Source: an uncultured Acidobacteriota bacterium
GTDB lineage: Bacteria > Acidobacteriota > JAQAZP01
DNA length: 64,000 bases
Assembly (NCBI GenBank): GCA_963836075.1
Contig: CAWIIB010000009.1
Location: 2,112,001 to 2,176,000, forward strand
Direction of reading: 5' to 3'
A model generated the notes under the pieces. The model did no database searches. It was given only the letters and a program-made list of their open reading frames with translations, and had not been told where the DNA came from. The position numbers and the translations under genes were made by a program. Below, in pieces: positions 4,714 to 19,675 of the stretch (within the stretch, counting starts at the first letter, position 1; every line of letters begins with the position of its first letter).

Positions 4714-6234
4714 GTGATTAACAAGAACGTCGATTTCATTTACCTCCACCCCTACCATGGCGACAACATCGAGGCCCACAAGATGTATTCCCTGATCCCG
4801 GTGGGTGCGGTGGCCATTGTCAACCACCTGCTGGACAGCGGATTGACCGGCCGGGGGCTCAACGTGCCCCTGGAGCTGCGCAAGGACGACGAGTTCGATC
4901 CCCGGCCCTGGATCGAGGCGCACCAGTTCTCAATCGCGCTGATCGACATCAACTGGTATCTGCACCTGGCCGGCGGCCTGGACCTTGCCGCCCTGGTCAA
5001 GGAGGTCCGGCCCGGGGCCACCGTACTGGTGGGCGGGCTCACCGCCACCCGGTTTGCCGATGAGATCCTCACCCGTTTCCCGGCGGTGGATGCCGTCTGC
5101 CGCGGGGACGGGGAAGTGCCGGCGCAGATGCTGGCCGAGAAATGTGCCGGCCGGGCGGAGCATCCCATGGAGGAGATCCCCAACATCGTCTGGCGCGGCG
5201 AGGATGGGATCCGGCACAATCCGCAGTCCTATGTGGACCGGGAGATGGATCGCTGGAATTACCGTGACCTGGGGTTCCTGGAGAGCGAAAAGGACTATTA
5301 CTACAACTCGATTCTCAAGTGGGCCGACCTGGCCACCCACTGGCTGGCCCTGGGCCGGGGGTGTCGCTTTGCCTGCTACCACTGCGACGGATCGAGCCAG
5401 GCCCAGAAAAAACTGTTCGGCCGGGCCGGGCTGATGGTCCGCGACCCGGAACTGGTGGCCCGGGACATCGAGATTCTGGCCGGGCGGGGCATCGAGAACG
5501 TCAGCTTCACCCACGACCTGGTGCACATCGGGGAGGACTACTGGCGCGCCCTCTTTGCCGCTGTGCGGTCCTCCGGCGTGCGGATCGGCGCCATGCAGCC
5601 GTTCTGGCAATCCCTGCCCAGCGAGGATTTTGCCCGGGAGTTTTCCGAGACCTTCGTGATGAAGAACTCCTATGTCAACGTCTCCATCGAGACCGCGGTG
5701 GAGGAGATGCGCCGGCACATCCACAACTGCACCTTTTACAGCAACGAGGAATTTTTCGAGGGGCTGCGGTTGCTCAAGCAGCACGGTGTTCCGATCATGG
5801 TCTACTTCCGGCTCAACGCGCCGTGGGAGTCGGCTCGCACCATGGAGGTGAATATCAAGTGTGCGGCGGAGGTCTTCCGCCTGTTCCCCGAAGACGTGCC
5901 GCCGATCTTTGTCAGCGACGTGCCGCTGGACCCCAGTTCGCCATACTCCCACGCCGCGGAGACTGCGGAGTCGCGTTTTTCCTTCAGTTTCCCCAAGCTG
6001 GGCTTCGATGACTACTACCAGTTCTCCCGGGGAATGATCCCGGCGGAGAAGGTGTTCGCCAGCCCCGGCGGGCCGGGAATCGAGATGAGGGACTACCACG
6101 AGTTCGATCACCTGGGCAAGCTCGACGTGCTCTTCGTCAAGAAGCTGGTCCCACGGATGTGGGGGCGCTGGGAAGAATTGATGCTCAGTGACGGCAAGAG
6201 CTGGGACGCCATCCGCAGCGGGGTGGTGGTATGA
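4714..6234 (+). CDS. B12-binding-domain radical SAM protein (class B-like)
   Basis: N-terminal cobalamin-binding Rossmann features (VLVGGLTAT, DAVCRGDGE); GRGCRFACYHC gives CxxxCxxC; stop overlaps the next ATG (ATGA). Confidence 0.85.
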   Translation: MINKNVDFIYLHPYHGDNIEAHKMYSLIPVGAVAIVNHLLDSGLTGRGLNVPLELRKDDEFDPRPWIEAHQFSIALIDINWYLHLAGGLDLAALVKEVRPGATVLVGGLTATRFADEILTRFPAVDAVCRGDGEVPAQMLAEKCAGRAEHPMEEIPNIVWRGEDGIRHNPQSYVDREMDRWNYRDLGFLESEKDYYYNSILKWADLATHWLALGRGCRFACYHCDGSSQAQKKLFGRAGLMVRDPELVARDIEILAGRGIENVSFTHDLVHIGEDYWRALFAAVRSSGVRIGAMQPFWQSLPSEDFAREFSETFVMKNSYVNVSIETAVEEMRRHIHNCTFYSNEEFFEGLRLLKQHGVPIMVYFRLNAPWESARTMEVNIKCAAEVFRLFPEDVPPIFVSDVPLDPSSPYSHAAETAESRFSFSFPKLGFDDYYQFSRGMIPAEKVFASPGGPGIEMRDYHEFDHLGKLDVLFVKKLVPRMWGRWEELMLSDGKSWDAIRSGVVV

Positions 6235-8390
6235 AAACCTATCTCGTGTTTCCGCCCCACTGGACGGCCACCGAACCGTACCTCAGCTGCCCCGCCCTCA
6301 CCGCGTTCCTGCGGGCGCACGGCCAGGAGGTCCGCCAGCAGGACGCCAACGTGGAGTTCTTCCGCTATCTGCTCTCCGAACCCTATCTGCGCCGGGCTCG
6401 CGACGAAGTGCAACATCGGTTCAGGCTTCTGGAGGCCAGGGACGAGCTGACTATCGAAGAGCAGGACCGCTACCAGGTCTACACCCAGGCGCTCCTCCCG
6501 GCGGACACCGCAGTGGAGAACATCGAGGGGAGTCTGGAGGACTATCGTGACCCGGAGAAATTTTTCAACCTCAACGATTACTACCGCGCAGGGCGGATCC
6601 ATTTCGCCGCTCTGAAGCTGGCTTCCGCGCTGTACCATCCCAGTTCGGTCACCTTCTCCGAATACAACAGCCGCTACCGCTACGCCAGCACCCGCGAGAT
6701 CCTCCAGGCGGTGGAGGACCGCGGAGAGAACATGTTCATCGAGTTCTTCGAGGAGCAGGTGGTGCCGAAGATCGAGGCCTACGGCCCGGGAATTCTCGGT
6801 CTGTCCATCAGTTCCCCGCACCAGATCATTCCGGCATTCACCCTGGCCTCCCTGGCCCGCAAGCGCATGCCTGGCCTGCACATCGTGGTGGGGGGCGGCT
6901 ACTACACCAGGATGCTCATCGATCCCCAGCGAATGGCGCCGTTGTTCGACCTGCTGGACAGCGTCGTGGTCTACGAGGGTGAAACCGCGTTGCTCCGACT
7001 GGCCGAGGAACTGGACGGCGGGGGCCGGCTGGACAGGGTGCCCAACCTGGTCTGGCGCGATGGTGGAGACGTGCGGGTCAACCAGCCGTTCCATCACGAA
7101 CGGGTCGACGAGCTGCCCACCCCCACCTTCGACGGGTTTCCGCTGGAGAAGTATCTGAACCACCAGGTGGTCATCCCCTATCTCACCTCCCGGGGCTGTT
7201 ACTGGGGCAAGTGCGCGTTCTGCACCAGCTTCGAGACATATAAGGGCGGTTACCGCCAGCGAAACATCGACCTGGTGCTGGAGGACCTGAAGACGCTCTC
7301 CACGGAGTGCGGATCGAACAGCTTTTTCTTTGTGGACCAGGCCACCTCCCCCGCATCCCTCCGGCGAATCTCCCAGGGGCTGATCGATTCCGGCGCCGAG
7401 TACCACTGGCAGACCGAGGCCCGCTTCGAACGCAAACTGGACCTTCCGCTACTCCGGCTGATGCACCGCTCCGGCTGCCGCAAGCTGCTCTTCGGCCTCG
7501 AGTCGGGGCACCAGCGGGTGCTTGACCTGATGGAGAAGGGGACCCGTCTGGAGGACACACGGCGTATTCTCGAGGACTGCCAGAAAGCCCATATCGGTAT
7601 CCACGTCTTTCTCATCTGCGGTTTCCCCACCGAGACCGTGGAGGAGGCGGACGCCAGCGTCGAGTTCATCCTCGGGGTGGAGGGTCTGACCTCATCTCCC
7701 GGTTTCACCTACCACGTGCACAACTTCGGTCTGGAGACCGATTCAAAGGTGGGAATGAACCCGGAGCGCTACGGGGTGACGCTGCAGCCGATGGAGGAGG
7801 ACCTGGACCAGTTCCTGCACTACATCGGCTACCAGGTGGAGCAAGGCATGCCCCCGGAAGCCCTGGAACACAAGGTGGCCGAGATGCGCGGCAGGATTCT
7901 CCAACGGGTGGCCTTCAAGGACTATCCGGTCCACGGGCCGCACAACCTGCTCTACCTGGCGCATTACGGGTGGGCGTTCCCCGAGCCATTGGAGAACGTG
8001 GCCCAGTTCAAGGACCTCCCGTTCCAGAAGCTCCTCGGTTTTGTTCCGGTGCTGGCCGACGAGGTGACGGTGAAGGAGTTCAAGTTCTACGTGCCCGAAG
8101 AGGAGGGGGTGCCGTCACCCCTCCCCGGCGGTGGTGAGGGGAGTGCCCCGGCGGAGCGGAAGCTGATCCATGTGGGCGGCCACTTCTACTGCTATATCGG
8201 CCGCACCGAGCGGAGCTGGCTGATCAGCCCCCGGGGCAAGACCCTTCTCGACCTCACCGACGGCACACGGACGGTGGAGCAGGTCTGTACCCTGTTCGAG
8301 CAGCAGCAGCCGTCCAAAACCGCATTCATCCAGGCCGCCGGGGACATGCGTGTCTTCTTCCAGCGCGGCGCCCTGACCGTCGCCGGTTAA
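6231..8390 (+). CDS. B12-binding radical SAM protein with C-terminal RRE/PqqD-like domain (putative RiPP C-methyltransferase)
   Basis: IVVGGG...VVYEGE B12 domain; TSRGCYWGKCAFC (Cx4Cx2C); FGLESG and ICGFPTET barrel motifs; the C-terminal ...GKTLLDLTDGTRTVEQVC... resembles PqqD. Confidence 0.85.
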   Translation: MKTYLVFPPHWTATEPYLSCPALTAFLRAHGQEVRQQDANVEFFRYLLSEPYLRRARDEVQHRFRLLEARDELTIEEQDRYQVYTQALLPADTAVENIEGSLEDYRDPEKFFNLNDYYRAGRIHFAALKLASALYHPSSVTFSEYNSRYRYASTREILQAVEDRGENMFIEFFEEQVVPKIEAYGPGILGLSISSPHQIIPAFTLASLARKRMPGLHIVVGGGYYTRMLIDPQRMAPLFDLLDSVVVYEGETALLRLAEELDGGGRLDRVPNLVWRDGGDVRVNQPFHHERVDELPTPTFDGFPLEKYLNHQVVIPYLTSRGCYWGKCAFCTSFETYKGGYRQRNIDLVLEDLKTLSTECGSNSFFFVDQATSPASLRRISQGLIDSGAEYHWQTEARFERKLDLPLLRLMHRSGCRKLLFGLESGHQRVLDLMEKGTRLEDTRRILEDCQKAHIGIHVFLICGFPTETVEEADASVEFILGVEGLTSSPGFTYHVHNFGLETDSKVGMNPERYGVTLQPMEEDLDQFLHYIGYQVEQGMPPEALEHKVAEMRGRILQRVAFKDYPVHGPHNLLYLAHYGWAFPEPLENVAQFKDLPFQKLLGFVPVLADEVTVKEFKFYVPEEEGVPSPLPGGGEGSAPAERKLIHVGGHFYCYIGRTERSWLISPRGKTLLDLTDGTRTVEQVCTLFEQQQPSKTAFIQAAGDMRVFFQRGALTVAG

Positions 8391-8438
8391 ACCAGAAGAG
8401 GACCCTCCTCTGCTCCAGTCCCGCCCGTGTGTATGTAC

Positions 8439-8473
8439 AAAAAAAGACCTCTTCACTGGGGGAGGAAGAGGTC
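8439..8473 (-). terminator. Intrinsic terminator ending the precursor transcript(s)
   Basis: 9-bp stem GACCTCTTC/GAAGAGGTC with a T7 tract following on the minus strand (A7 at 8439-8445); lies between convergent genes. Confidence 0.75.
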
Positions 8474-8665
8474 ATCTCTTAGCTAGCCAGATTTTTTAGC
8501 GATTGAAAAGAGGCGTTATCGTTTTAACGTGAATTTGAACAGCTTTCAACAGGAACAGGAACTCGCAGCTTTTCGCCTCTTGAGGGTATGGAAATTCAAA
8601 CCGCTCTTCGGGGATTGCGAAGTCTTGGCGAAATTTCAAATACCCGAATTTTACTCAAGCCATCC

Positions 8666-8932
8666 TTAGGAGGCGAGAGTTACCCAGTTGCCGCACAGGC
8701 CGGCGTACCAGTAAGACTGGGACGTTCCGCCAGGGCCGAAGCCGACGCCAGCCTGACCGGGGCTCACACTGGAGCTGGCACCAAAACCAGCACCAAGGTG
8801 ACCGGTGAAGGTGTCATAGGCGCTCGCCATGTGGTGAGAGCCAGCCGGAGGACTGGCAGTCTTACCACATGCCAGGGCCGAAGTCTCAAAGCTCTTCTCA
8901 GTGAAAATAGTGGGCTTGGAATACTTCTTCAA
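8666..8932 (-). CDS. RiPP precursor peptide A3 (88 aa)
   Basis: MKKYSKPTIFTEKSFETSALACGKT...YDTFTGH...AGVGFGPGGTSQSYWYAGLCGNWVTLAS; TTG start after strong RBS GGAGGAGGTG; paralog of the two upstream peptides. Confidence 0.9.
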   Translation of the reverse strand: MKKYSKPTIFTEKSFETSALACGKTASPPAGSHHMASAYDTFTGHLGAGFGASSSVSPGQAGVGFGPGGTSQSYWYAGLCGNWVTLAS

Positions 8933-9132
8933 TCTGTTTCACCTCCTCCCGTTTTGGAATCTCCCTCTCGGGTTAAACCCAAGGGTCTTTAATGCCGAAA
9001 CGAACAAAACCCCGCAGTGATCGATTCATGTGTCTATCAGTTAACCACTGCGTTCCGGCAAACTTTAAACTGCGTTACTTCCCTTGTTCGCCGTGGGGCC
9101 GGCCGCAACCGGATCACCGCACTGGCTGACCG

Positions 9133-9167
9133 AAAAACAACCCGAACATCGTCACATGCGGGGCTGC
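9133..9167 (-). terminator. Possible weak terminator or stabilising hairpin after precursor A2
   Basis: Imperfect stem (GCAGCCCCGCAT...ATGTTCGGGTTGT) followed by TTTT on the minus strand. Confidence 0.35.
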
Positions 9168-9182
9168 CCGATCATCGGTTGA

Positions 9183-9443
9183 TCAGGACGACATCTGAAC
9201 CCAGTTGCTGCACAGCCCGGCATAGTTGTAACTGCCGCTGGTGCCGCCGGGGCCGAAGCCCACGCCCGCGGAACCGCTGGCTGACTCTGTCCGGCCTGGT
9301 CCGAAGTGACCGGTAAAGGTGTCATACGCACTTGCGAAATGGCGCGAACCTGGATCGGCGGCGCTGGTCTTGCCGCAGGCCAGCGCTGATGTCTCAAAGG
9401 TCTGTTCCGTCTGGATAACCGGCTTGCCGTAAGGAAGTCTCAT
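9183..9443 (-). CDS. RiPP precursor peptide A2 (86 aa)
   Basis: MRLPYGKPVIQTEQTFETSALACGKT...YDTFTGH...AGVGFGPGGTSGSYNYAGLCSNWVQMSS; ATG 9443 after GGAGGT. The track ORF 9183..9713 is over-extended. Confidence 0.9.
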   Translation of the reverse strand: MRLPYGKPVIQTEQTFETSALACGKTSAADPGSRHFASAYDTFTGHFGPGRTESASGSAGVGFGPGGTSGSYNYAGLCSNWVQMSS

Positions 9444-9513
9444 AATTACCTCCAGAGAACCGACCAGCCGGTTCAGGGTGTGCCCCCGATGTGGCCGGTT
9501 CACTTCGGAACAA

Positions 9514-9780
9514 TCAGGAACTGTAGGTGATCCAGTTGCCGCACATACCGCTGTAAACGTAACTGCCGCTGGTGCCGCCGGGGCCAAAGCCGATGCCGGC
9601 GCTGCCGCTGGCCGACTCGCTACCGCCGAAACCACCACCGAGGTGACCGGTGAAGGTGTCATAGGGAGCACCCATGTGCCAGGATCCCGGAGGGGGATCA
9701 GTGGTCTTGCCACAGGCCAGTGCGGAAGTTTCGAAACTCTTCTCGGTCGCGATCCTCGGCTTCTTGTAATCTCTCTTCAT
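9514..9780 (-). CDS. RiPP precursor peptide A1 (88 aa)
   Basis: MKRDYKKPRIATEKSFETSALACGKT...YDTFTGH...AGIGFGPGGTSGSYVYSGMCGNWITYSS; ATG 9780 after AGGAGGT. Confidence 0.9.
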   Translation of the reverse strand: MKRDYKKPRIATEKSFETSALACGKTTDPPPGSWHMGAPYDTFTGHLGGGFGGSESASGSAGIGFGPGGTSGSYVYSGMCGNWITYSS

Positions 9781-9850
9781 TACACAACCTCCTTTGATAT
9801 AAAGAGTTTTGGTATTGTTTGCCATTACACCTGGAAGGCAATTGGCGCTC

Positions 9851-9879
9851 TTTATATCATAGGGTCCCTGATGTGTCAA
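9851..9879 (-). promoter_or_regulatory. Near-consensus sigma70 promoter for the precursor genes
   Basis: Minus strand TTGACA-N17-TATAAA with an extended -10 TG, about 70 nt upstream of ATG 9780. Confidence 0.75.
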
Positions 9880-10029
9880 GTTCCTTCGCAGGACTTAGAT
9901 ACGGCTAACCAGCTTGCTCTCGGCGGCCTGAAAATCGGTGGACCGCCGGGATGGTCCGCGTCAATACTGGGAACCTGATTTCAACCCGTTGAGAAACCCC
10001 TGTTGCCGCAGCAACAACGTCAGTTAATC

Positions 10030-10046
10030 TGCACGATTTGTGCCAA
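10030..10046 (-). promoter_or_regulatory. Putative sigma54 (-24/-12) promoter upstream of the precursor genes
   Basis: Minus strand TTGGCAC-AAATC-GTGCA, exact GG-N10-GC spacing, in an AT-rich intergenic region. Confidence 0.55.
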
Positions 10047-10346
10047 TTGCCGGGGTATTGTCCGGTGTCTTATCGTCGTGCTCGTAATTCATTATGGTGG
10101 AAGGAAATAGTTCCCTGATCCAGGGCTGGTGGGCCGCCGGCATTGTGTCGGATCGCCCGTACGCTGCTCTGATCAAGGAATCGAATTGCCTACAGTCGGA
10201 AAACTATTACTCTTGGCAATCCCTTGCCTTTTTGGTTGGTTTGTTTATTTTTTGGCCGTCTATCAGCGATGCCGCGCCGGCTCCGGTGCGGTGAGGGGGA
10301 CTGAAGTCAAAAATGCGTGCCTCGAAGAAAGGTGCGGGGTGGCGAT

Positions 10347-10895
10347 TCAGTTCCGGAGCAGCGCGCCGAGAACGTAGACCGGACCGCAGAACAGGTAACG
10401 GATCACCGGCCGGGCCATGCGGTTCGGTCCCGCGGGGAGGCGGGCCGCCAGAGCCAGCAGGGGGCAGGCCAGGCGGCAGCTGAGGGCGGAGGCGCTGGCC
10501 ATGATCCGGCTGCGGACGCCGCGTCCGAGGGCTACGTCCCGCCCCTGGCGGCTGGTGGAGGCGACTCTGCCGAGAAGCGTATCCGCAGAGTGTGGCGGGT
10601 CGTAGTGGGGCAGGGTATCGCCGCTGGTCAGCATCAGCCGTTGGCCGTCCGCTGCGTTCTGCCAGCCGAGAAACCGGTGGCCGATGAAGCGACCGTCCCG
10701 GGTGGCGAAGAAGAGGATGTCTCCCGCCCGGGCCTGTTCTGCCTCCAGCGGTTCGATCCGGATCATCTCCCCGTGGCGCACAACCGGCATCATGCTTCCG
10801 CCAAAGGCGCGGAAGGTGAACGATCCATGACCGTCCAGCGTCTCCCGGATCATTCCGGCAGTGACGGTCCTGTGCTGCGGGCCGGGTCTGCTCAT
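10347..10895 (-). CDS. S24/S26 family (signal peptidase I-like) peptidase, putative leader peptidase
   Basis: GGSMMP (catalytic Ser), GDILFF, IGHR (His) and SGD motifs; last gene of the maturase operon, directly upstream of the precursors. Confidence 0.75.
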   Translation of the reverse strand: MSRPGPQHRTVTAGMIRETLDGHGSFTFRAFGGSMMPVVRHGEMIRIEPLEAEQARAGDILFFATRDGRFIGHRFLGWQNAADGQRLMLTSGDTLPHYDPPHSADTLLGRVASTSRQGRDVALGRGVRSRIMASASALSCRLACPLLALAARLPAGPNRMARPVIRYLFCGPVYVLGALLRN

Positions 10896-10911
10896 TGGGG
10901 GCCGCCGGCGT

Positions 10912-12027
10912 TCAGGTTTCGATGTCGTCGATATCAGAGGCCGGACGCTTCTCCTGGACCAACCGGCGCATCTTGGAGGTCCGGCAGGCGAAGGAGGACG
11001 GCCCGAAAGCGTCGCCGTCTTCCAGCAGGGCCACTCCCGGGCAACGGAAGCAGATCGGCAGCAGGGAACACTCGCTGCACTTCTCCACGTCGGCCATGGT
11101 GGTCTGCCGTATTTTTTTCAGCACCGGCGAGTTCTCCCAGATCTCACTGAACGGAGTTTCACGCAGGTTTCCGGCGCTCATCTGAAACTGGATGCAGGGG
11201 AACACGTTTCCGTAGGGGTCGATGCTCAGGAAGTTGGTGCCCGCCTTGCACATGTAGGTCTCCCTGGTCATCTGGGCGCCTTCGCTGTATTCCCGGGTCC
11301 CGAAGGTGAGCAGTCCCTGGTTGAACTTCTCGTCGCTGAGGATGCGGTGCAGGTCCTCGTCGCTGATCCGGTTGCCGCAGGGGCGTGATGAGCCGTCGAT
11401 TCCCGGGGCGATCAAGGGATCGATGGTGTATTTCACGTCCAGGCGGTCTCCGAGGGTCTTGATCAGGTCGAACTCCCCCACGTTGTCTTTCATCAGCGTG
11501 CACTTGAGGTTGACCTTCAGCCCCCGCGCCTTGAGCATCATGATCGCGGCGATGGTCTTCTTGAACGACCCGGGGAGCTGGGTGATCCGGTCATGGGTTT
11601 CCGCCGTGGCGCCATAGACCGAAATACCCATCTCCCACGGGGCCACCGACTTGATCCGGTCGGCCAGTTGCTCGTCGATCATCGTGGCGTTGGTCAGCAG
11701 GTTGATGGCGAAATGCAGGCTCCTGGCATGCTCGAGGATCTCCCAGATATCGCGGCGGAGAAAGATCTCACCGCCGGTGATCGAGAGGTGCAGCGTGCCC
11801 GCCTGGGCCAGCTGGTCGAGAATGGTGCGGATTTCGTCGGTGGTCAGTTCCTGCTTCACCTTCTCCTTCGAGGGGTGGTCGAGGTAGCAGTGCAGGCACT
11901 TTTCGTTACAGCGGTGGGTCAACTCCAGGATGACGCTGTACGGGATCAGCTTCTGGTGTGAGACGCTGCTGATCTTGCTCAGCACCGAGGGCTGGAACAG
12001 CTGCTCGGGGGGCGTGTTGTCGGACAT
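10912..12027 (-). CDS. Radical SAM/SPASM domain peptide maturase
   Basis: LELTHRCNEKCLHCY (CxxxCxxC), ITGGE, TNAT; SPASM region CKAG...IDPYGNVFPC...CSECSLLPICFRC...C. ATG 12027 with RBS GGAGG. Confidence 0.92.
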   Translation of the reverse strand: MSDNTPPEQLFQPSVLSKISSVSHQKLIPYSVILELTHRCNEKCLHCYLDHPSKEKVKQELTTDEIRTILDQLAQAGTLHLSITGGEIFLRRDIWEILEHARSLHFAINLLTNATMIDEQLADRIKSVAPWEMGISVYGATAETHDRITQLPGSFKKTIAAIMMLKARGLKVNLKCTLMKDNVGEFDLIKTLGDRLDVKYTIDPLIAPGIDGSSRPCGNRISDEDLHRILSDEKFNQGLLTFGTREYSEGAQMTRETYMCKAGTNFLSIDPYGNVFPCIQFQMSAGNLRETPFSEIWENSPVLKKIRQTTMADVEKCSECSLLPICFRCPGVALLEDGDAFGPSSFACRTSKMRRLVQEKRPASDIDDIET

Positions 12028-12177
12028 CTGGCGGGCCTCCCTGGGGATACGTGCGGCACGCGGATGCGTGCGGAAGGCCCTGCCGGCATCACGGCCGTAG
12101 ACGCCGCCACGGCCGGATTCTTGCCGGCCCGGGCGGGGCCTGTCCACGATTCCGGCGGGGCGTTCCGGCTCGGGGGA

Positions 12178-12453
12178 TCAGGAAAGGGTGACCAGGCTCT
12201 TTTCCTTCTGCATCAGTTCTTCGATGAATTCCACCACGTCTTTTTCCGCGGTTTCCCGGTCCACTTCGAACTCCGAGACCACCTGGTCGACAATCTCGCT
12301 CACTGTCTTCTCGCCGTCGCACAGCTCCCAGATCCTGGTGCCCACCGCGTCCAGCGAATGGACCGAACTGTCTTCAGCGGAGAGGAGGACCGCCTCGTCT
12401 CCAATAATACGCCAGGCGACGTTTTCGTCTCGGGTCACTTTCTTATCCAGCAT
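12178..12453 (-). CDS. Stand-alone PqqD-family RiPP recognition element (RRE)
   Basis: 91 aa, ...LDAVGTRIWELCDGEKTVSEIVDQVVSEFEVDRETAEKDVVEFIEEL, a classic PqqD signature. Confidence 0.92.
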   Translation of the reverse strand: MLDKKVTRDENVAWRIIGDEAVLLSAEDSSVHSLDAVGTRIWELCDGEKTVSEIVDQVVSEFEVDRETAEKDVVEFIEELMQKEKSLVTLS

Positions 12454-13255
12454 TTTCGATGCACCTCCATACAGACTCGTCGGGCTTGAAATGCAATTCC
12501 GCCGACGGGATCTGCGTCATGAAATCGGTGAAAACGGAAAGGAGTTCGTTGGTCAACTCGAGACCGCGGCCGAAAAACAGCACGTTTTGCAGAATCTGCG
12601 TCATTTTAACGCCCATGGGGATCTGGTCGATCCGGTTTTCCCTCGCCTTGCGCAGGAAGAAGAGGTGAGAAACCGGTGCCGATTCCCGGGCCGTCCCTTT
12701 CTGGAAGTCGCCCCAGAACGGGTTGCCGTGGACGACATATTCTCCGTTTTCCTTGAGCACGGCGGTCAGTTCGTCGCTCAGCAGTCTGTTTTCGGGCGAC
12801 AGGCCGCTGATCGTGCTTTTCCCCGACCCCGAGGAGCCGGTGAAGATGTAGCCCCTCCCCTTGTGAACAACCGAACTGGCGTGGAGCATGAATCCGCCCC
12901 GCTTGAGCATCAGCCAGGTGTAGAAAACCCGATAGAACGCGTCAAAGGAATAGATCGACTCGTGCACCTCCAGGGCCCCCTGGTTTCCGGCAATGCTGAA
13001 CACTCCCGTGAAATCGCTCCGGTTCATGTTCAGCCGCTCGTCCTCCAGGGTGAGAACGGGCTGCTCGCCGAGGCGGCTCTCCCTCGCCGACTCACCCGTC
13101 TCGGCGTCGAACGTGGTGACCCGGTAGGTGTACAGCGGCTGGTCGTCGGTGATGAAACTCTCGTAGCGGTCCCGCAACACCTCGGACAGCGTTGGGGAAT
13201 CCACCTCGAACCGGGTGGCGATGTCGGCGATGGTGATGGTGATCGACGTGTCCAT
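12443..13255 (-). CDS. HPr-kinase-like P-loop protein (ScmC / lasso-kinase-like), putative peptide kinase
   Basis: MLHASSV...YIFTGSSGSGKST (Walker A)...LLSDE...HGNPFWG. Real start is ATG 13255 within the over-extended 944-aa track ORF; the stop overlaps the PqqD start. Confidence 0.8.
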   Translation of the reverse strand: MDTSITITIADIATRFEVDSPTLSEVLRDRYESFITDDQPLYTYRVTTFDAETGESARESRLGEQPVLTLEDERLNMNRSDFTGVFSIAGNQGALEVHESIYSFDAFYRVFYTWLMLKRGGFMLHASSVVHKGRGYIFTGSSGSGKSTISGLSPENRLLSDELTAVLKENGEYVVHGNPFWGDFQKGTARESAPVSHLFFLRKARENRIDQIPMGVKMTQILQNVLFFGRGLELTNELLSVFTDFMTQIPSAELHFKPDESVWRCIENAG

Positions 13256-13419: not shown

Positions 13420-13449
13420 TTGACCCCTGGCGGCAAAAGTTGCTACCAT
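13420..13449 (+). promoter_or_regulatory. Divergent sigma70-like promoter for the methyltransferase gene
   Basis: TTGACC-N18-TACCAT with TG immediately upstream of the -10. Confidence 0.4.
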
Positions 13450-13528
13450 GCTCCGCTTTCCGGCGCGAAGCCCTCCCCGGTGGACGTTGGGCGCCGGTCG
13501 GCTGAACCTGATCGCTCTGGTGTTCACA

Positions 13529-14659
13529 GTGGACCTGTCTCTCCTCAAACTGATTCGTTGTCCGGCGGACACCGGCGGCCGTGCCTGCCATTCCCCGCTG
13601 GGCATCGACCGTCCGGCCGCCGAACCGGTCTTCTTCCCCGGAGGGGATCAGGACCTGGCGCAAGGGGTGTTGCGCTGCGACGGCTGCGGTGCCCGCTACC
13701 CGGTGATCTGCGGGGTGCCGGTGCTGCTGCGGGGTGTGGAGGCCTGGATCAGCGGGAACTACTGGTTCCTCCTCGGTTTTGCCGGGGAGATGGGCGCTCC
13801 GGTGACAAGCACCGCGGACTTTCTCCGGGAGACAGCTTCCCGGGACGGCGGGATGCCGCCCCGCCAGCTCTATGACCGTCGATGGTCCACCCGGGTGGCC
13901 AAGTTCGTCAGTAGCTACCTGATCAGCCACCACCTGGGTCTGGAGCGTCTGGAGTTGCTGGGACCGGCCCAGCGCCGGCTGGCCATGGAGATGGCCGTTG
14001 AGGGTGGTCCCCACGAGGTGCTCCAGGGCATGCTGGACGACCTGGAGACGCCCGGCGACACCACCGGGCCGGCCCTGGATGTGGGGTGCAGCGTGGGCGG
14101 CATGACGGCCCGATTGGCCGTTGGGGACCGGCTGGCGGTGGGGGCCGATATCAGTTTCGAGAGCCTGGTCTGGGCCCGGGCGCTGCTCAGGGGGCGGCCC
14201 GGCCCGCGTAACCTGGCGCCGGTGTTCACCGAGGGGGACAACCGGGTGGAGGTGCCGCTGGCTCCCCCGCAAGACAGCCGCTGCGAGTTCGTGCTGGCCG
14301 GCGGCGAGGCGCTCCCCTTCACCGACGGCTCTTTCGGGGTGGTCGCCAGCTGCAACCTGGTCGATGTGATCGACAAGCCGTCGGAACTGCTGGACGAGAA
14401 GAGCCGGTTGCTGGGGCCCGGCGGCGTGCTGCTCGTCTCCTCGCCCTTCCTGCATACCGCTGCGGGAGTTGGCCGCTGTCTCGCCCCCGAGGGCCGGCAG
14501 CCGACGGCTGTGTTGCGGACCATGCTCGAGGAACGGGGTTTCGAAGTGGCGGCCGAGCAGGAGGATGTGCCGTGGGTGCTCTATCACTACCGCCGCCGGC
14601 TCGATTTCTATCAGACGTTTTGTCTGGCCGCCCGCCGATGCGCGGCGGCTGAAGAGTGA
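13529..14659 (+). CDS. Class I SAM-dependent methyltransferase with N-terminal Trm112-like Zn module
   Basis: LIRCPAD...LRCDGCGARYPVICGVPVLL (Trm112-like); ALDVGCSVG, GADIS, LPFTDGSFGVV and LLGPGGVLLV motifs. GTG start inferred. Confidence 0.75.
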   Translation: MDLSLLKLIRCPADTGGRACHSPLGIDRPAAEPVFFPGGDQDLAQGVLRCDGCGARYPVICGVPVLLRGVEAWISGNYWFLLGFAGEMGAPVTSTADFLRETASRDGGMPPRQLYDRRWSTRVAKFVSSYLISHHLGLERLELLGPAQRRLAMEMAVEGGPHEVLQGMLDDLETPGDTTGPALDVGCSVGGMTARLAVGDRLAVGADISFESLVWARALLRGRPGPRNLAPVFTEGDNRVEVPLAPPQDSRCEFVLAGGEALPFTDGSFGVVASCNLVDVIDKPSELLDEKSRLLGPGGVLLVSSPFLHTAAGVGRCLAPEGRQPTAVLRTMLEERGFEVAAEQEDVPWVLYHYRRRLDFYQTFCLAARRCAAAEE

Positions 14660-14668
14660 GGCAGGTCT

Positions 14669-15808
14669 ATGGTCCATGTCTATCGGGCGGCAGTCTACCT
14701 GGTCATGATCGTCGCGGCGCTGCTGTTCTATCTGCTGCTGCGCCGGCTGTTCGGCAAGCGCACCCGGGTCTTCCCGCTGGTGGCGGCGCTGCTGGCGGTC
14801 ACAGGTTTGCTCTGGTGTACGCACTTTGCGCTCTCCAAACCGGCGTTGCTGCAGAAATACGCGCCGGTCCTGAAAATCAGGAAGCAGGGGGCGAAGATGA
14901 ACATGGTCTATATGGAGTCGGAGGTCCGGATCTGCAACCCCGACGGATCGGGGGACATCCTGTTCCTGCCCCAGGATTTCATCACCACCCGGGACATCAC
15001 CTGGTCGCCCGACGGCACCAGGATCATCTGCAGCCGTGTGGGGGACAGCCACGAGGGGATGAACCTCTGGCTCTACGATGCCAATGGTGAAAACCCGGTC
15101 CCGCTCACCTCGGGTCCGGGGATTGCCCGCCGGCCCAGCTGGTCGCCCGACAGCACCAGGATCGTCTTCGACTTCCGCCCCGGCTTGCGCCAGCTGGCCA
15201 CCGATATCTGCGTGATCAATGCCGACGGCAGCGGCCGGCAACTGCTGCTGGCCGGCAGCCGGACCCACGCCTATCATCCGGTCTGGTCACCGGACGGCAC
15301 GTCCATCTACTGCTGTGTGAAGGACGGGCGCCGCGATGACATCTGGGTCATGGATGCCGACGGCGGAAACCTGCGCCAGCTCACCTTCACCGCCGACCAG
15401 TCGGAGACCGAACTGGCGGTATCCCCCGACGGCAGCACCATCGTGTTTTCATTAAACCGCCGGGAGATGTACCTGATGGACGCCGACGGAAGCCATGTCC
15501 GCCCCTTGACCGCCGGGGACGGCAAGACCTGCCGGGGCCGGGACCCCAGCTGGAGCCCGGACGGCCAGCGGATCCTCTACGCCGGATTCGGGGCCAAGAA
15601 TTCCAGACGGTTCATCAAGGAGATCGGCAGGGACGGCAGCGGGCTGCGGCAGATCCCGGTGCAGGACGGCAAACTGCTCACCCCGGTGATGACGCCTGAC
15701 GGGTCGCGCCTGACCTACCTGCGGTTCGTCAAGACGGTGGTGCGCAAGGTCACACCCAGAAGGAACCCGGTGGCCGGGCCGGGGCTGCCGGCGGGAGAAG
15801 GGCGCTGA
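14669..15808 (+). CDS. Membrane-anchored TolB-like (PD40) beta-propeller protein
   Basis: Two N-terminal TM segments; repeated WSPDG motifs with interspersed MDADG blocks. Confidence 0.85.
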   Translation: MVHVYRAAVYLVMIVAALLFYLLLRRLFGKRTRVFPLVAALLAVTGLLWCTHFALSKPALLQKYAPVLKIRKQGAKMNMVYMESEVRICNPDGSGDILFLPQDFITTRDITWSPDGTRIICSRVGDSHEGMNLWLYDANGENPVPLTSGPGIARRPSWSPDSTRIVFDFRPGLRQLATDICVINADGSGRQLLLAGSRTHAYHPVWSPDGTSIYCCVKDGRRDDIWVMDADGGNLRQLTFTADQSETELAVSPDGSTIVFSLNRREMYLMDADGSHVRPLTAGDGKTCRGRDPSWSPDGQRILYAGFGAKNSRRFIKEIGRDGSGLRQIPVQDGKLLTPVMTPDGSRLTYLRFVKTVVRKVTPRRNPVAGPGLPAGEGR

Positions 15809-15814
15809 CCGGGG

Positions 15815-17203
15815 TCAGGACGACCTGGCCTTGAGCTTGAGACGCTTGATCATTTCGCTGAGGGTGGTGGGTTTGACCTGCAGCAGCTGGGCCGCCGACT
15901 TCTGCACACCGTTGGACAGGGAGAGGGCGCGGAGGATCAGAGCCTTCTCGAATTCCTCCACGGTCTTCTTCAGCGAGAGCCCGCCGTCGGGGATGATAAT
16001 CTCCTCCGCCGAGGGAATGGCCGGATTGCGGATGTGACCGGGGATCAGGTCGAGGTCGATTTCATCCGTCTTGCACAGAACCACTGCCCGCTCCACCGTG
16101 TTCTCCAGCTCGCGCACGTTTCCCGGCCAGTGGTAGCCTTCCAGCACACCCAGCGCCTCCCGGGTGAAGCCGGCCACACTCTTGCTGTTCTCCTCATTGT
16201 AAGTGCGGAGAAAGTGCATTGCCAGCAGCGGGATGTCCGAGGCGCGCTGGCGCAGCGGGGGCAGGGAAATGGTGATCACGTTGAGCCGGTAGTAAAGGTC
16301 TTCGCGGAATTCCTTTTTCTGCACCGCCTCTTCGAGATTGGAGTTGGTGGCGGCGATGATCCTGGTGTCGACGCGGATCGAGTCCACTCCGCCCAGGGCC
16401 ATGAACTCCCGTTCCTGGATCACCCGCAGGATCTTGGCCTGGGTTTCCGAACTCAGGTTTCCCACCTCGTCGAAGAAGATGGTCCCACGGTCCGCCAGCT
16501 CGAAGAGGCCCTTTTTGGTGTTGATCGCGCCGGTGAACGCCCCCTTCACGTGTCCGAAGAGATTGCTCTCCAGCAGGTCCGCCGGCATGCTGCCGCTGTT
16601 CACCACGATGAACGGCTGTCCGGAGCGGGGGCTGTTCATATGGATCGCCTTGGCGATCAACTCCTTGCCCGTTCCGCTCTCCCCCTGGATCAGCATCGTC
16701 GAGCGGCTCGGTGCCGCCTGGGAGATCAGGTCGAAGATCTCCTTCATCTCCGTGCTCTGGCCGATGATGTTGGAAAAACCGTATCTGTCGGAGAGGGCCC
16801 GCTTGAGGTTGCGGTTCTCCTGGGTCAGCCGCCGGTGCTCCACCCCCTTGCCGATGGTCAGCAGCACCTCCTCGTTCTTGAACGGTTTGGCGATGTAATC
16901 GAAGGCACCGTTTTTCATTGCTTCGATGGCGCTCTCCACCGAGGCGTAGGCGGTGATCATGATCACCACCTGGTGCGGGTCGTCCTGTCTGATGGACTGC
17001 AGCGCTTCCAGCCCGCTCATCCCAGGGAGCATGATGTCGCAGAGGATGACGTCGAAGTCGGTTTCGCCCAGCTGGCGCAGCCCGTCTTCAGCCGTGCCGG
17101 CGCATTCCACCTCGTAGCCGCGGCGCCGGAGCAGGCGGACCAGCACATCCTGCATCACCTCTTCGTCGTCGATGACGAGGACCCTGGCCCGCTCCTTATC
17201 CAT
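15815..17203 (-). CDS. Sigma54-dependent response regulator (NtrC family; REC-AAA+-HTH)
   Basis: VIDDE...DIMLP receiver; GESGTGKE, LESNLFGHVKGAFTGA, FREDLYYRLNV and WPGNVRELEN motifs; Fis-like HTH. Confidence 0.95.
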   Translation of the reverse strand: MDKERARVLVIDDEEVMQDVLVRLLRRRGYEVECAGTAEDGLRQLGETDFDVILCDIMLPGMSGLEALQSIRQDDPHQVVIMITAYASVESAIEAMKNGAFDYIAKPFKNEEVLLTIGKGVEHRRLTQENRNLKRALSDRYGFSNIIGQSTEMKEIFDLISQAAPSRSTMLIQGESGTGKELIAKAIHMNSPRSGQPFIVVNSGSMPADLLESNLFGHVKGAFTGAINTKKGLFELADRGTIFFDEVGNLSSETQAKILRVIQEREFMALGGVDSIRVDTRIIAATNSNLEEAVQKKEFREDLYYRLNVITISLPPLRQRASDIPLLAMHFLRTYNEENSKSVAGFTREALGVLEGYHWPGNVRELENTVERAVVLCKTDEIDLDLIPGHIRNPAIPSAEEIIIPDGGLSLKKTVEEFEKALILRALSLSNGVQKSAAQLLQVKPTTLSEMIKRLKLKARSS

Positions 17204-17251: not shown

Positions 17252-19675
17252 TTACGTTGGTGGTGAAGAGCTGCCGCTCCCTCGGGGCAGGGTCACGGTG
17301 AACACCGTTCCGGCGCCAGGCCGACTGTCGACGGAAATGTCACCCTGATGCTCACGAATTATACCATAGCAGATCGAGAGCCCCAGGCCGGTGCCGGCCC
17401 CGGGGGGCCTGGTGGTGAAGAAGGGTTCGAAGATGCGCCGGCGGACATCCTCGGGGATTCCATGGCCGCTGTCCGAAACCGTCACGCAGGCTTTTGACCC
17501 GGCGGTCCGGGTGGCAACGCTCAGCAGCCCGCCCTCCGGCATGGCCTCCAGAGCGTTGCTCATCAGGTTGATCAGCACCTGCTGCAGTTGTCCGGCGTCG
17601 CCGGTCACCTCCAGCGGCTCGGCTGAAAGTTCCAGACGGAAATCGACGGTGGTCCCTTTCAGCAGGTGCTCGAAGAGGGACACCGCCTGACTGGTCACCT
17701 GGTTCAGGTCGGCGGCTACCATGGTGCCGCCCTGCTTGCGCGCGAACTGCAGCAGGGAGGAGACAATATTTTCCGCCCGTTCCGCCTGCAGGCCGATTTT
17801 TTTCAGCATCTCCACCTGCTCCGTTTCGCTGGCATCGGCGGCCACGTTTTCCAGCAGCATTTCGGTGTAACTGGAGATGCCGGTGAGCGGCGTATTGATC
17901 TCGTGCGCCACTCCGGCAGCCAGCTGACCGATGGAGGCCAGCCGCTGCTGCTCCATCAGCCGGTTGGTCAGGGTGCTGTTCTCCAGGGCCATGGCCAGCA
18001 GTTCGGCGGCGGGCCGCAGCGCCTCCAGGTCCTCGCTGGAGAGCAGGGCCCCGCCCCTGCGCGGCCCCATACCGATTGCGCCCAGGCATTGGCCGCCGCC
18101 GGCCCCGGTCATGATCAGCAGCTGGTAACAGCCTTTCCAGGGGGAGGACAGTTGCACCACGCGGCAGCGCCCGTTTCCTGCCCCCTTGCCGATCCCGGTC
18201 TGTTGCCGGGGATCGGGCTGCCGCGCCTGGTCGGGGATTTCGGCGGCGGGGACGAAACGCATGGAGTCAATCTCCATGGCCCGGGCGACGTCGTCCATGA
18301 ACATCTCCACCAGTCGCTCCGGCGGGAGGGCGGGGTCGAGGCGGAAGGGATCGAAATCAGCCAGTCGTTCCCGGTGGTCCATGCGGTCCCCGAAGTGCAG
18401 ACGGTCCGCTGACCGGGCCAGCGAGTCCCTGATTCGAGGGAAGAAGATGGCGGAGATGGTCACCGCGGTCACCGCCCAGAAAATCATGCCGACCGGCCGG
18501 CGGGGATCGGAGAGGGCGGGCACCCAGCGGGAGGCGGCGGACAGGGCCAGAATCACGGTGAAAAGGGTTGCCGCCGAGGAGAGCGAGTAGACCATCGACT
18601 TTTTGAAAACCAGCGGGGCGTCGGCCAGCCGGTAGCGCATCACTGCGACGCTGAAGGCGGCGGGGATCAGTACCAGGGTGAGCAGTGACATGGCCTGCCA
18701 GTCCGCGGGGTAGGAGCCGGCCAGGTAGGGCAGGAAAAAGAGGACCAGCGGCGGCGTTCCTCCCAGCACGGTGCCCAGAGAAATCCAGAGCAGTTGCTGC
18801 CGCTGCACGGGATTGCGGGCCCGGGTGGTGCGCACAGCGGCCACCAGGCCGCCCAGCAGCAGGGCGGCGCCCAGCCAGCCAAGGCTCAGCCTGCGCAGCA
18901 CGGCATACATGGTGGTGGTGGTGTAGGGGTTGCCGGGGCGGGCCAGCAGCCCGAGGTTCCAGGCGACGTAGAGCAGGGCCAGACCGCAGGAAACGGCGAT
19001 GCCCGCGGTGATCACCAGGCGCCGGTGCCACGCTCCCGGGGCGGGAAACCAGATGCAGAACCCCAGAAAGAGCGCCGGTAGGAGCAGGGTGCCGGCATCG
19101 TCGAGGGCGTTGACCAGCAGATCGAAGTTGTCCCAGATGCCGATGGGGGAGAGGAGGGTCAACCCGGCGAAAGAGAAGCAGATGCCGGCCAACAGGAGGC
19201 TCTCCCGGGGCCGGCGGCCGAAGATCCCCACCATGGCGCCGAGGAACAGCGCCGCTGTCCCGGCCAGGACGAGGACAGCGTACAGAAACGTGCCGTCCGG
19301 CTGGCGCACCACCCGCACCACGCGGTTGATCTGACGGCCTTGCCGCAGCATCGTGTAGATGCTCTCCGCGGCCGGCCCTGATGATGCCAGCGCCTGGCCG
19401 TATTCCACCGTCGTACCCACCGGGAGTCCGTTGATTGCGGTGACGATGTCGCCGGTCCTGATGCCGGCCTGCTGTGCCGGGCTGGAGGTGCGAATGCCGA
19501 TGACCTGCAGACCGGCAACAGTGTCGCGGACGGCCAGGCCATCCTGGGGGACATCAACCGCCCACTTGCGCCAGACATTGAATCCGCCGAGGACCAGCAG
19601 TACCAGGAGCAGTAACAGGGTCCAGGTGATCCCGGTCTGCCGGTTCCGCTCTTTCCTGGTTCCACTGCCGATCAC
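17252..19675 (-). CDS. Membrane sensor histidine kinase with extracytoplasmic PDZ domain
   Basis: [20 protein letters not shown] (PDZ); about 9 TM segments; AHEINTPL H-box; [19 protein letters not shown] and GTGLGL boxes. Confidence 0.9.

Follow-up and report, generated by a model that had tools for sequence, protein, structure and literature searches.

A probable RiPP locus with LPP-like leader-processing genes and radical SAM enzymes in an uncultured Acidobacteriota bacterium

We studied a locus for a putative RiPP (a peptide synthesized on ribosomes and modified after translation) in a 64,000-nucleotide stretch of DNA from an uncultured Acidobacteriota bacterium (contig CAWIIB010000009.1, positions 2,112,001 to 2,176,000; this whole stretch is called the window). 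The locus (4714..13255) contains nine genes at the coordinates given by an initial annotation, seven on the minus strand and two on the plus strand. The minus-strand genes encode an HprK-like kinase, a PqqD-type RiPP recognition element (RRE), a radical S-adenosylmethionine (SAM) enzyme with a SPASM domain, a peptidase, and three paralogous peptides of 86-88 amino acid residues (aa), all as annotated; the plus-strand genes encode two B12-binding radical SAM enzymes. The explanation that we favor as a whole, and consider likely, is a RiPP biosynthetic cluster in which a recognition and processing core of the type found with linear polyphosphorylated peptides (LPP) is joined to radical SAM chemistry.

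Genes and encoded proteins

The three peptide genes lie on the minus strand and encode precursor peptides A (8666..8932, 88 aa, TTG start), B (9183..9443, 86 aa), and C (9514..9780, 88 aa). The peptides are 68-71% identical, and a GGAGG-type ribosome-binding site stands before each gene. Precursor C matched 204 protein clusters at E <= 0.01; the best 120 of these were 84-118 aa long and 59-86% identical, with no functional name on any. In RNA libraries (four runs from three studies), contigs span 8494-9919, covering the three peptide genes with their spacers, several of them with 0-1 differences; contigs of this kind do not prove transcription. Precursor A is under four such contigs with 0-1 differences, B is under contigs 8921-9427 and 9120-9544, and C is under contig 9586-9820 with 0 differences. 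As 204 protein clusters match and RNA-library contigs cover the genes, the peptide genes are not chance open reading frames (ORFs). In the same four runs, the enzyme and B12 genes had next to no contig cover, which says nothing about their expression. Separately, DNA runs labelled salt marsh, marine sediment, or freshwater sediment contained 0.2-0.41 of the sampled words, a value that is not a conclusion about habitat. Since the precursor genes are covered by RNA-library contigs of sediment and salt-marsh origin, it may be possible to find the product in nature.

A spacer of 566 nt separates the peptide genes from the gene for the predicted leader peptidase (10347..10895, minus strand, 182 aa), a SipW/Sec11-type (S26B-like) protein resembling signal peptidases and having no N-terminal membrane anchor. 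Among family models, TIGR02228 for signal peptidase I of the archaeal/SipW type matched it best (E 2.5e-9, below the cut-off). Across 26 cassette homologs, conservation of the motifs G-x-S-M-x-P, H-R, and G-D-x5-D is 90% or more. The predicted radical SAM/SPASM maturase (10912..12027, minus strand, 371 aa; Pfam Radical_SAM and SPASM) has an invariant CX3CX2C motif at Cys40/44/47 and seven SPASM cysteines. The closest solved structure is PqqE (E 3.5e-15), and no curated family cut-off was reached.

The discrete PqqD-type RRE (12178..12453, minus strand, 91 aa; Pfam PF05402, E 1.1e-21) is the only protein of the locus that passed a curated cut-off for a named NCBIfam family (PqqD model, 48.1 against 46 bits). 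A profile of the cassette RREs matched the lasso RRE TbiB1 with an E-value of 9.6e-16, PqqD with 9.5e-9, and two PDB entries named lasso/PqqD-family chaperones with 2.7e-11 and 7.2e-11. The RRE gene overlaps by 11 nt with the gene for the kinase-like protein (12443..13255, minus strand, 270 aa), which has an HprK/PEPCK-type P-loop fold, the Walker A motif GSSGSGKS at residue 140, and a match to the PEPCK ATP site. The best NCBIfam match of this protein was ScmC (E 2.6e-12, 46.7 bits against a cut-off of 125), and the matches to HprK_rel_A and HprK_rel_B were also below the cut-off. Walker A is kept in 44 of the 51 full-length cassette kinase homologs, as well as in the window's own protein.

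Related genes were also observed elsewhere in the source genome. A paralog of the radical SAM/SPASM gene at C1:90284 (41% identity) was considered as a second cassette and rejected, since no HprK, PqqD, or S26 gene is nearby. At L041 (G000:C1:1284000-1299000), a third HprK-like gene precedes one for a PF14907 nucleotidyltransferase, and this pair diverges from a NifU-like gene and a gene for a 471-aa radical SAM/SPASM protein; no peptide of the family was found nearby.

The two plus-strand genes converge on the peptide genes from the opposite side. B12a (4714..6234, 506 aa) matched NCBIfam TIGR04190 with 182 bits (E 1.5e-53; cut-off 500), and it also matched Pfam Radical_SAM and, weakly, a B12-binding domain; an ortholog with 92% identity is located at the same position in the congener locus L046. 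For B12b (6231..8390, 719 aa), the best family was TIGR03975, 'RiPP maturation radical SAM C-methyltransferase', below the cut-off (E 7.4e-37, 127 against 282 bits). The two genes overlap in ATGA and are translationally coupled, as had been annotated. The annotated terminator between the two units was also recovered, as an intrinsic-terminator-like hairpin with U7 located 3' of the last precursor gene at about 8438..8481 (minus strand). Its folding energy is -19 kcal/mol (z -2.67), and 2 of 200 shuffled sequences folded equally well. Because its loop exceeds 8 nt, the hairpin is overlooked by a simple terminator scan. One contig from the RNA libraries stops near the hairpin, at 8494.

Precursor families and their link to the cassette

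We refer to the homologs of the window peptides as the long family. In an alignment of 50 members, Y5, P8, E17, A20, C23, G32, H35, T42, G45, H46, six glycines, and C80 are invariant, and conservation extends through the entire core (mean column identity 66%). Among the best 120 proteins, FET is present in 91, and the C-terminal residue is Ser in 110, Thr in 6, and Cys in 4. The general frame has the first Cys five residues after F-E-T, 8 residues after the last Cys, and a C-terminal Ser. The AlphaFold2 model of the peptide (mean predicted local distance difference test score (pLDDT) 43.4, predicted template modelling score 0.13) suggests a disordered chain, which would suit a substrate of modification more than a small folded protein. 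When the PDB was searched with the profile of the long peptides, nothing matched at E <= 10.

The source genome has a single maturase cassette but 15 matches to this family: 14 full-length copies spread over 9 loci and a fragment that contains a stop codon. Of the 401 genomes sampled from the phylum, three have the long family, and all three belong to one genus that constitutes the whole order as sampled (3 of 3 genomes). In the two congener genomes, the order of HprK, PqqD, SPASM, S26, three peptides, B12b, and B12a is completely syntenic. Orthologs of the radical SAM/SPASM protein are limited to six clusters at 72-94% identity, and the next matches are at 49% or less.

The surroundings of the other peptide copies vary. 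The copies at L032 (G000:C1:1577000-1593000), L033 (C9:1840000-1857000), and L038 (C1:1900000-1916000) neighbor large proteases: among the 9 loci, one adjoins a gene for a 787-aa protein with a clostripain (C11) domain, one is convergent with a gene for a 2078-aa subtilase (S8)/H-lectin protein, and one is about 4 kb from a gene for a 788-aa subtilase (S8). FG-GAP repeat proteins flank other copies. In the case of L034 (G000:C8:129000-145000), the peptide (local 8057-8302) ends in GGGT, not in Ser, and its gene diverges from a second HprK-like gene, which is followed by genes for a PBP1-type protein, two sulfotransferases, a GT4 glycosyltransferase, and a 237-aa SPASM-domain protein; L034 may be a second tailoring locus. 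At L036 (G000:C9:580000-595000), one copy lies amid many small ORFs in a stretch with low GC content at third codon positions, which may be a mobile or foreign island, and the broken fragment (C9:601817-601936, with an internal TAA) is near this copy. A copy of precursor A with 88% identity was found at L043 (JAZDIV010000066.1, 2907 nt) in a metagenome-assembled genome labelled 'PVC group bacterium'; a mis-binned contig seems more likely here than a second phylum.

A metagenome scan with an alignment of the radical SAM/SPASM protein and its relatives gave at least 80 loci at 31-47% identity, many of them on short contigs that end at the cassette; none of the matches listed belongs to the 72-94% ortholog tier. 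When the window proteins were compared with the 80 loci by tblastn, 65 rows were obtained for the HprK-like protein, 70 for PqqD, and 36 for S26. The commonest order in these cassettes is precursor, S26, HprK, PqqD, and SPASM; in a second order, the precursor and S26 genes come after the SPASM gene. A profile hidden Markov model of only the leader of the source genome's long peptides was matched at E <= 1 by a single small ORF in each of 48 of the 80 loci (46 of the 80 at E < 1e-4; the weakest match looks spurious), and it also had matches in 10 of the 27 loci around HprK-like matches in species-representative acidobacterial genomes.

These short precursors have 50-68 aa, and 45 of the 45 distinct ones end in Ser. 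A profile-profile comparison of the long and short families gave a probability of 98.1% and an E-value of 1.2e-13 over residues 1-27 of the long family. The short-family profile matched 990 representatives at E <= 0.001 among 1.84 billion. Of the best 150 of these, 149 end in Ser; the 149 motif-bearing representatives within the same 150 include 147 with exactly two Cys and 141 with 7 residues after the last Cys. In Acidobacteriota, the short-precursor cassette bearing a radical SAM gene is widespread (its precursor has about 55 aa, two Cys, and a C-terminal Ser), and it reaches no curated NCBIfam cut-off.

The features that define the short cassette were all found in the window, namely co-located S26, HprK-like, PqqD, and radical SAM/SPASM genes together with a KPxF..E..FET.AL.C leader, two Cys, and a C-terminal Ser. 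The proteins of the two cassettes are homologous (SPASM ~36-43%, HprK ~27-35%, PqqD ~25-52%, and S26 ~27-40% identity), as are the leaders, and both precursor types have the Cys ... Cys-x7/8-Ser end. The window differs in its permuted gene order, with the peptidase and precursor genes after the SPASM gene, in its precursors of 86-88 aa with 14 full-length copies per genome, and in its two B12-binding radical SAM genes; the short cassette often has a PF14907 nucleotidyltransferase gene. As the two conserved Cys are separated by 57 residues in the long family and by 7-12 in the short family within the same frame, sequence comparison indicates that the window peptides branched off, with an expanded core, from a very common family of cassette-linked precursors. 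On the same type of evidence, the locus belongs as a derived member to a large family of cassettes in Acidobacteriota and is no isolated invention. At two acidobacterial loci from GTDB genomes, L146 and L158, precursors with the same leader have different, longer cores with a Cys-Cys pair; core length therefore varies elsewhere in the family too.

Described systems, a proposed pathway, and alternative explanations

The closest described system is the LPP family of Bacillota, with lppA-K-B-S-D-N of Paenibacillus alginolyticus (Popov et al., Nat Commun 2026, PMC13381572). According to that paper, the gene set includes a SipW-like signal peptidase I (LppS), a discrete RRE (LppB), an HprK-like kinase (LppK), a nucleoside triphosphate (NTP) transferase, and an exporter, and the precursors are 35-200 aa long and share the leader YxxPxVLxHQxIxFETxxS. 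Cleavage by LppS takes place after T-1 of FET; the enzyme requires LppB, depends on Ser29, His68, and Asp93, and prefers the modified precursor, and LppK places several phosphates on Ser3 of the core. The family is described as restricted to Bacillota, and the main text of the paper does not mention radical SAM, SPASM, or Acidobacteria (PMC13381572).

The window shares with LPP, as described there, the SipW/archaeal-type peptidase, the discrete lasso-type RRE, the HprK-like kinase, YxxP and FET elements in the leader, one to three precursor genes per cluster, and a setting of glycan or polysaccharide genes. The window peptidase has Ser, His, and Asp residues of the same types as S29/H68/D93 of LppS, in a comparison by motif. 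In the window leader, YxKPxI and FET are present; however, the spacing is 2 residues shorter than in the LPP motif, and position +3 of the core is Leu, not Ser. The window adds a radical SAM/SPASM enzyme, two B12-binding radical SAM enzymes, two invariant Cys, and a C-terminal Ser. No relative of NTP_transf_5 (PF14907) was found in the window, the only genomic match being at C1:1292797, and the window, whose genes were also scanned with Pfam, has no match to an MsbA-like ABC exporter or ATPase.

Phosphorylated and phosphoglycosylated lasso peptides (paeninodin and pseudomycoidin; PMC8498205) resemble the window system in having an HPr-kinase homolog, a PqqD-type RRE, a YxxP leader, and a C-terminal Ser, and in lasso clusters the precursor is phosphorylated at this Ser by the HPr-kinase homologs. 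In contrast, the leader peptidase is of the serine type in the window and is the B2 cysteine protease in lasso clusters; neither a lasso macrolactam cyclase (Asn-synthetase-like) nor a transglutaminase-like B2 protease was found among the family matches of the locus genes or of the other window genes. A pathway for pyrroloquinoline quinone (PQQ) is not indicated, as the radical SAM enzyme scored 110 bits against 381 for PqqE, and no PqqB, PqqC, or other PQQ genes are present in the window. Proteusins such as the polytheonamides have long cores modified by B12-dependent radical SAM C-methyltransferases, and in prochlorosins one maturase set serves many scattered precursors with a shared leader. 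Both differ from the window system in leaders and enzymes, which are unrelated, and the window cores are conserved, not diversified.

The initial annotation had proposed a RiPP-type locus, and the peptides indeed have a leader of the YxxP type, which lasso-type PqqD RREs bind. Its statement that no described class has the whole enzyme set agrees with our results, as no curated family matched the set as a whole and literature searches for the enzyme combination of the radical SAM-bearing cassette found no description. The description of LPP-type RiPPs dates from 2026 and is confined to Bacillota, and the window shows the same logic of leader, RRE, SipW-type peptidase, and kinase in Acidobacteriota. 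In the window, this logic is joined to radical SAM chemistry and extended to very long multi-copy cores with putative B12-dependent tailoring; the lineage-specific features are the expanded conserved core, the multi-copy precursors, and the B12-binding radical SAM partner with its probable RRE. The nine genes offer a test bed for the role of the radical SAM/SPASM enzyme in a very common acidobacterial cassette, for the site of an HprK-like kinase where the LPP acceptor Ser is missing, and for the sharing of a leader between a discrete RRE and one fused to a B12-binding radical SAM enzyme.

In the pathway that we propose, the 86-88 aa peptides would be precursors, with the first ~18 residues (Y-x-K-P-x-I ... 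F-E-T) as the leader. That the locus is a RiPP cluster with these peptides as substrates of the cassette is very probable. The discrete lasso-type PqqD RRE would bind the YxxP part of the leader, for which our confidence is high, and would present the peptide to the enzymes. With alignments of our own, a complex prediction for the RRE and precursor residues 1-40 scored 0.53, and the best of three controls scored 0.00; three runs agreed in at least 83% of contacts, and the pLDDT of the partner was at least 54. The passing mark is reached by 58 of 80 solved complexes and by 2 of 110 mismatched pairs, and passing scores of 0.60 or less were obtained with only 7 of the 80 solved complexes and with both passing mismatches. 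Similar complexes have been solved, so that the pass may be memory; the predicted complex thus lends weak support to binding.

The radical SAM/SPASM enzyme would then modify the core. The leading candidate, which we put forward tentatively, is a crosslink at one or both invariant cysteines; epimerization or C-terminal chemistry would be the alternatives. The HprK-like kinase would phosphorylate a Ser hydroxyl, and phosphorylation of the peptide is moderately probable. By analogy with lasso kinases (PMC8498205) and by conservation of the residue, the nearly invariant C-terminal Ser is the preferred site, although our confidence in this assignment is somewhat less than even. The SipW-type peptidase would remove the leader, probably right after F-E-T, and would release a Gly/Ser-rich core of ~70 residues; on balance we favor such a removal with the help of the RRE. 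Cleavage of the AxA type after A-L-A before the first Cys, following the -3/-1 rule, was considered and rejected: the short family has Val/Ile at -1 and LppS cuts after T-1, so cleavage after F-E-T is preferred. The two convergent B12-binding radical SAM enzymes, one with its own RRE-like domain, would add a further modification, most likely C-methylation. Since one cassette occurs with 14 same-leader precursors at 9 loci, the single cassette probably also acts in trans on the 11 remote copies. We infer all of the chemical steps, the cleavage site, the action in trans, and the product function. The crosslink or epimerization, C-methylation, and phosphorylation that the annotation had predicted are plausible inferences.

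Several points weigh against this explanation. The support from the complex prediction is weak, as graded above. The synteny of the long version is seen only in 3 genomes of one genus and carries little independent weight, and the conservation of the core over its full length differs from the hypervariable cores of many RiPPs. Leu stands at core +3, where the acceptor Ser of LppK sits; therefore, either the kinase site differs or the analogy fails. Because the window has no NTP transferase or ABC exporter, export is unexplained.

Further such points concern the B12-binding enzymes, which could be unrelated neighbors of a RiPP system formed by the minus-strand cassette and the peptides, acting on a lipid, a cofactor, a glycan, or a different peptide. 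Their genes converge on the peptide genes and share no operon with them, with the terminator in between. No relatives of B12a or B12b were found in the 80 short-cassette loci at E <= 1e-4, and the B12 enzymes are therefore outside the ancestral cassette. Adjacency can arise by chance, since the genome has ~34 B12-binding radical SAM matches, and the glycan-gene-rich window itself holds a further such gene at 49091-50608. Moreover, TIGR04190, the best family of B12a, has no assigned function. On the other hand, the best family of B12b is a RiPP C-methyltransferase model, and its last ~80 residues (residues ~640-719, nt ~8148-8387, plus strand) follow the sequence pattern of PqqD domains. In the AlphaFold2 model of residues 530-719, this part has three strands followed by three helices (pLDDT 64-90); Foldseek ranked TbiB1 and PqqD first (E 0.2-1, TM-score 0.63-0.67 on the target), and VIA-align gave Z 7.7 for the N-terminal RRE of CteB, 7.3 for TbiB1, 6.1 for PqqD, 5.3 for the RRE of a LynD-type cyanobactin heterocyclase, and 5.1 for McbB. 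In the ESM Atlas, clusters of MftB and PqqD were matched at 0.84, short of the 0.9 level, and these are leads only. The model was made from 8 close sequences with a mean pLDDT of 54.8, the Foldseek E-values are high, and Z-values below 8 can reflect a common arrangement only. A comparison of the PqqD profile with the B12b C-terminus by hhalign gave a probability of 7.8% (E 0.0045, 28 columns), and a Pfam scan of this C-terminus gave nothing even at E <= 10. An RRE-like domain is thus probable but not certain.

The C-terminal region of B12b is common to only 8 protein clusters (70-100% identity), and the RRE-like domain is found only in this lineage. B12b orthologs are as narrowly distributed as the long peptides and the radical SAM/SPASM orthologs: the longest contigs of the B12b matches (449674, 86439, and 10922) coincide with those of the long-peptide matches, and the SPASM match P0125 shares the value 449674 with both. 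At a second peptide locus, a different B12-binding radical SAM gene starts 28 nt after two peptide copies. A third B12-binding radical SAM enzyme (L035:7855-10134) had no RRE-like similarity to B12b or PqqD by BLAST. Two of the 9 peptide loci are within 300 nt of one of the ~34 matches, at a frequency of 0.005 in 20000 random placements, with the 300-nt threshold chosen after the data had been seen. We consider unrelated neighbors unlikely; that the B12 enzymes belong to the system is supported but not proven. We lean toward B12a and B12b acting on the window peptides, and if they do, the chance that the reaction is C-methylation is about even.

A different explanation is that the 88-aa peptides are small secreted or structural proteins from which the SipW-type peptidase merely removes an N-terminal segment, with the radical SAM enzyme and the kinase no longer acting on the long family. 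SipW processes TasA in Bacillus, and the conservation of the cores over their whole length in 14 copies per genome, the C11 or S8 protease-domain genes near three of the 9 peptide loci, and the RNA-library contigs over the peptide genes would all suit such proteins. However, the long peptides still have the short family's two Cys and C-terminal Ser/Thr, the cassette genes are all intact with conserved catalytic motifs, and the peptide is predicted to be disordered. The peptidase of LPP requires the RRE and prefers the modified precursor (PMC13381572). This explanation is quite improbable. The annotation had also noted a resemblance to the SynChlorMet cassette (ScmC/D/E/F; TIGR04248-04251), which likewise has an HprK/ScmC-like protein, a PqqD homolog, and radical SAM/SPASM proteins. 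Sub-threshold similarity does exist, as ScmC is the best NCBIfam match of the kinase and ScmD and ScmE are among the matches of the RRE and the radical SAM enzyme. The resemblance is weak, however, with 46.7, 42.7, 116, and 87.2 bits against curated cut-offs of 125, 100, 400, and 400, and LPP, which the annotation did not name, is closer. The SynChlorMet cassette has two radical SAM/SPASM genes in the TIGRFAMs description and the window has one, together with a peptidase and identified precursors; the SynChlorMet definition is not known to include an S26-type peptidase. Membership in this family is extremely improbable.

We thus return to the LPP-type core joined to radical SAM chemistry. In a bolder version, a deep-branching sediment lineage of Acidobacteriota turned a small phosphopeptide pathway into a factory for hypermodified peptides of ~70 residues, with one LPP-like cassette acting in trans on 14 scattered precursors and lineage-recruited, RRE-bearing B12-binding radical SAM enzymes decorating an expanded Gly-rich core. 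We regard this version as rather unlikely in its entirety. If it is true, the invariant Cys23/His35/His46/Cys80 and the core conservation would point to an abundant functional product, e.g. a metal-binding or a structural or envelope-associated peptide, which possibly works with the large proteases adjoining several copies, and not to a diversifying antibiotic.

Surroundings of the locus

A sigma-54-type -24/-12 promoter-like element (TGGCAC-N5-GTGC, by pattern match) is located at 10031..10045 on the minus strand, 251 nt upstream of precursor C. A stricter pattern has 137 matches genome-wide, or 0.0055 per 500 nt, and no such element was found within 500 nt upstream of the other 13 peptide paralogs; the element is a lead only. 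On inspection by eye, two minus-strand ORFs located 2.5 kb beyond the cassette (15815-17203 and 17252-19675) resemble genes for a sigma-54-dependent response regulator and for a sensor histidine kinase. A PD40 beta-propeller protein gene (14669-15808) and a methyltransferase gene (13448-14659) were considered as parts of the cassette and rejected, since they have no counterpart among the conserved neighbors of the short cassettes.

The window is rich in glycan-biosynthesis genes, encoding sulfatase-domain proteins, glycosyltransferases, GDP-mannose dehydratase, epimerases, PMT_2, and TMEM260-like proteins. Three sulfatase-domain proteins, GT1/GT2/GT4 glycosyltransferases, GDP-mannose dehydratase, epimerases, a DegT aminotransferase, and PMT_2 are encoded within 19897-63505, as are the selenocysteine proteins SelA and SelB. 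A gene for a relative of B12b with 33% identity begins at the end of the window, at about 63647.

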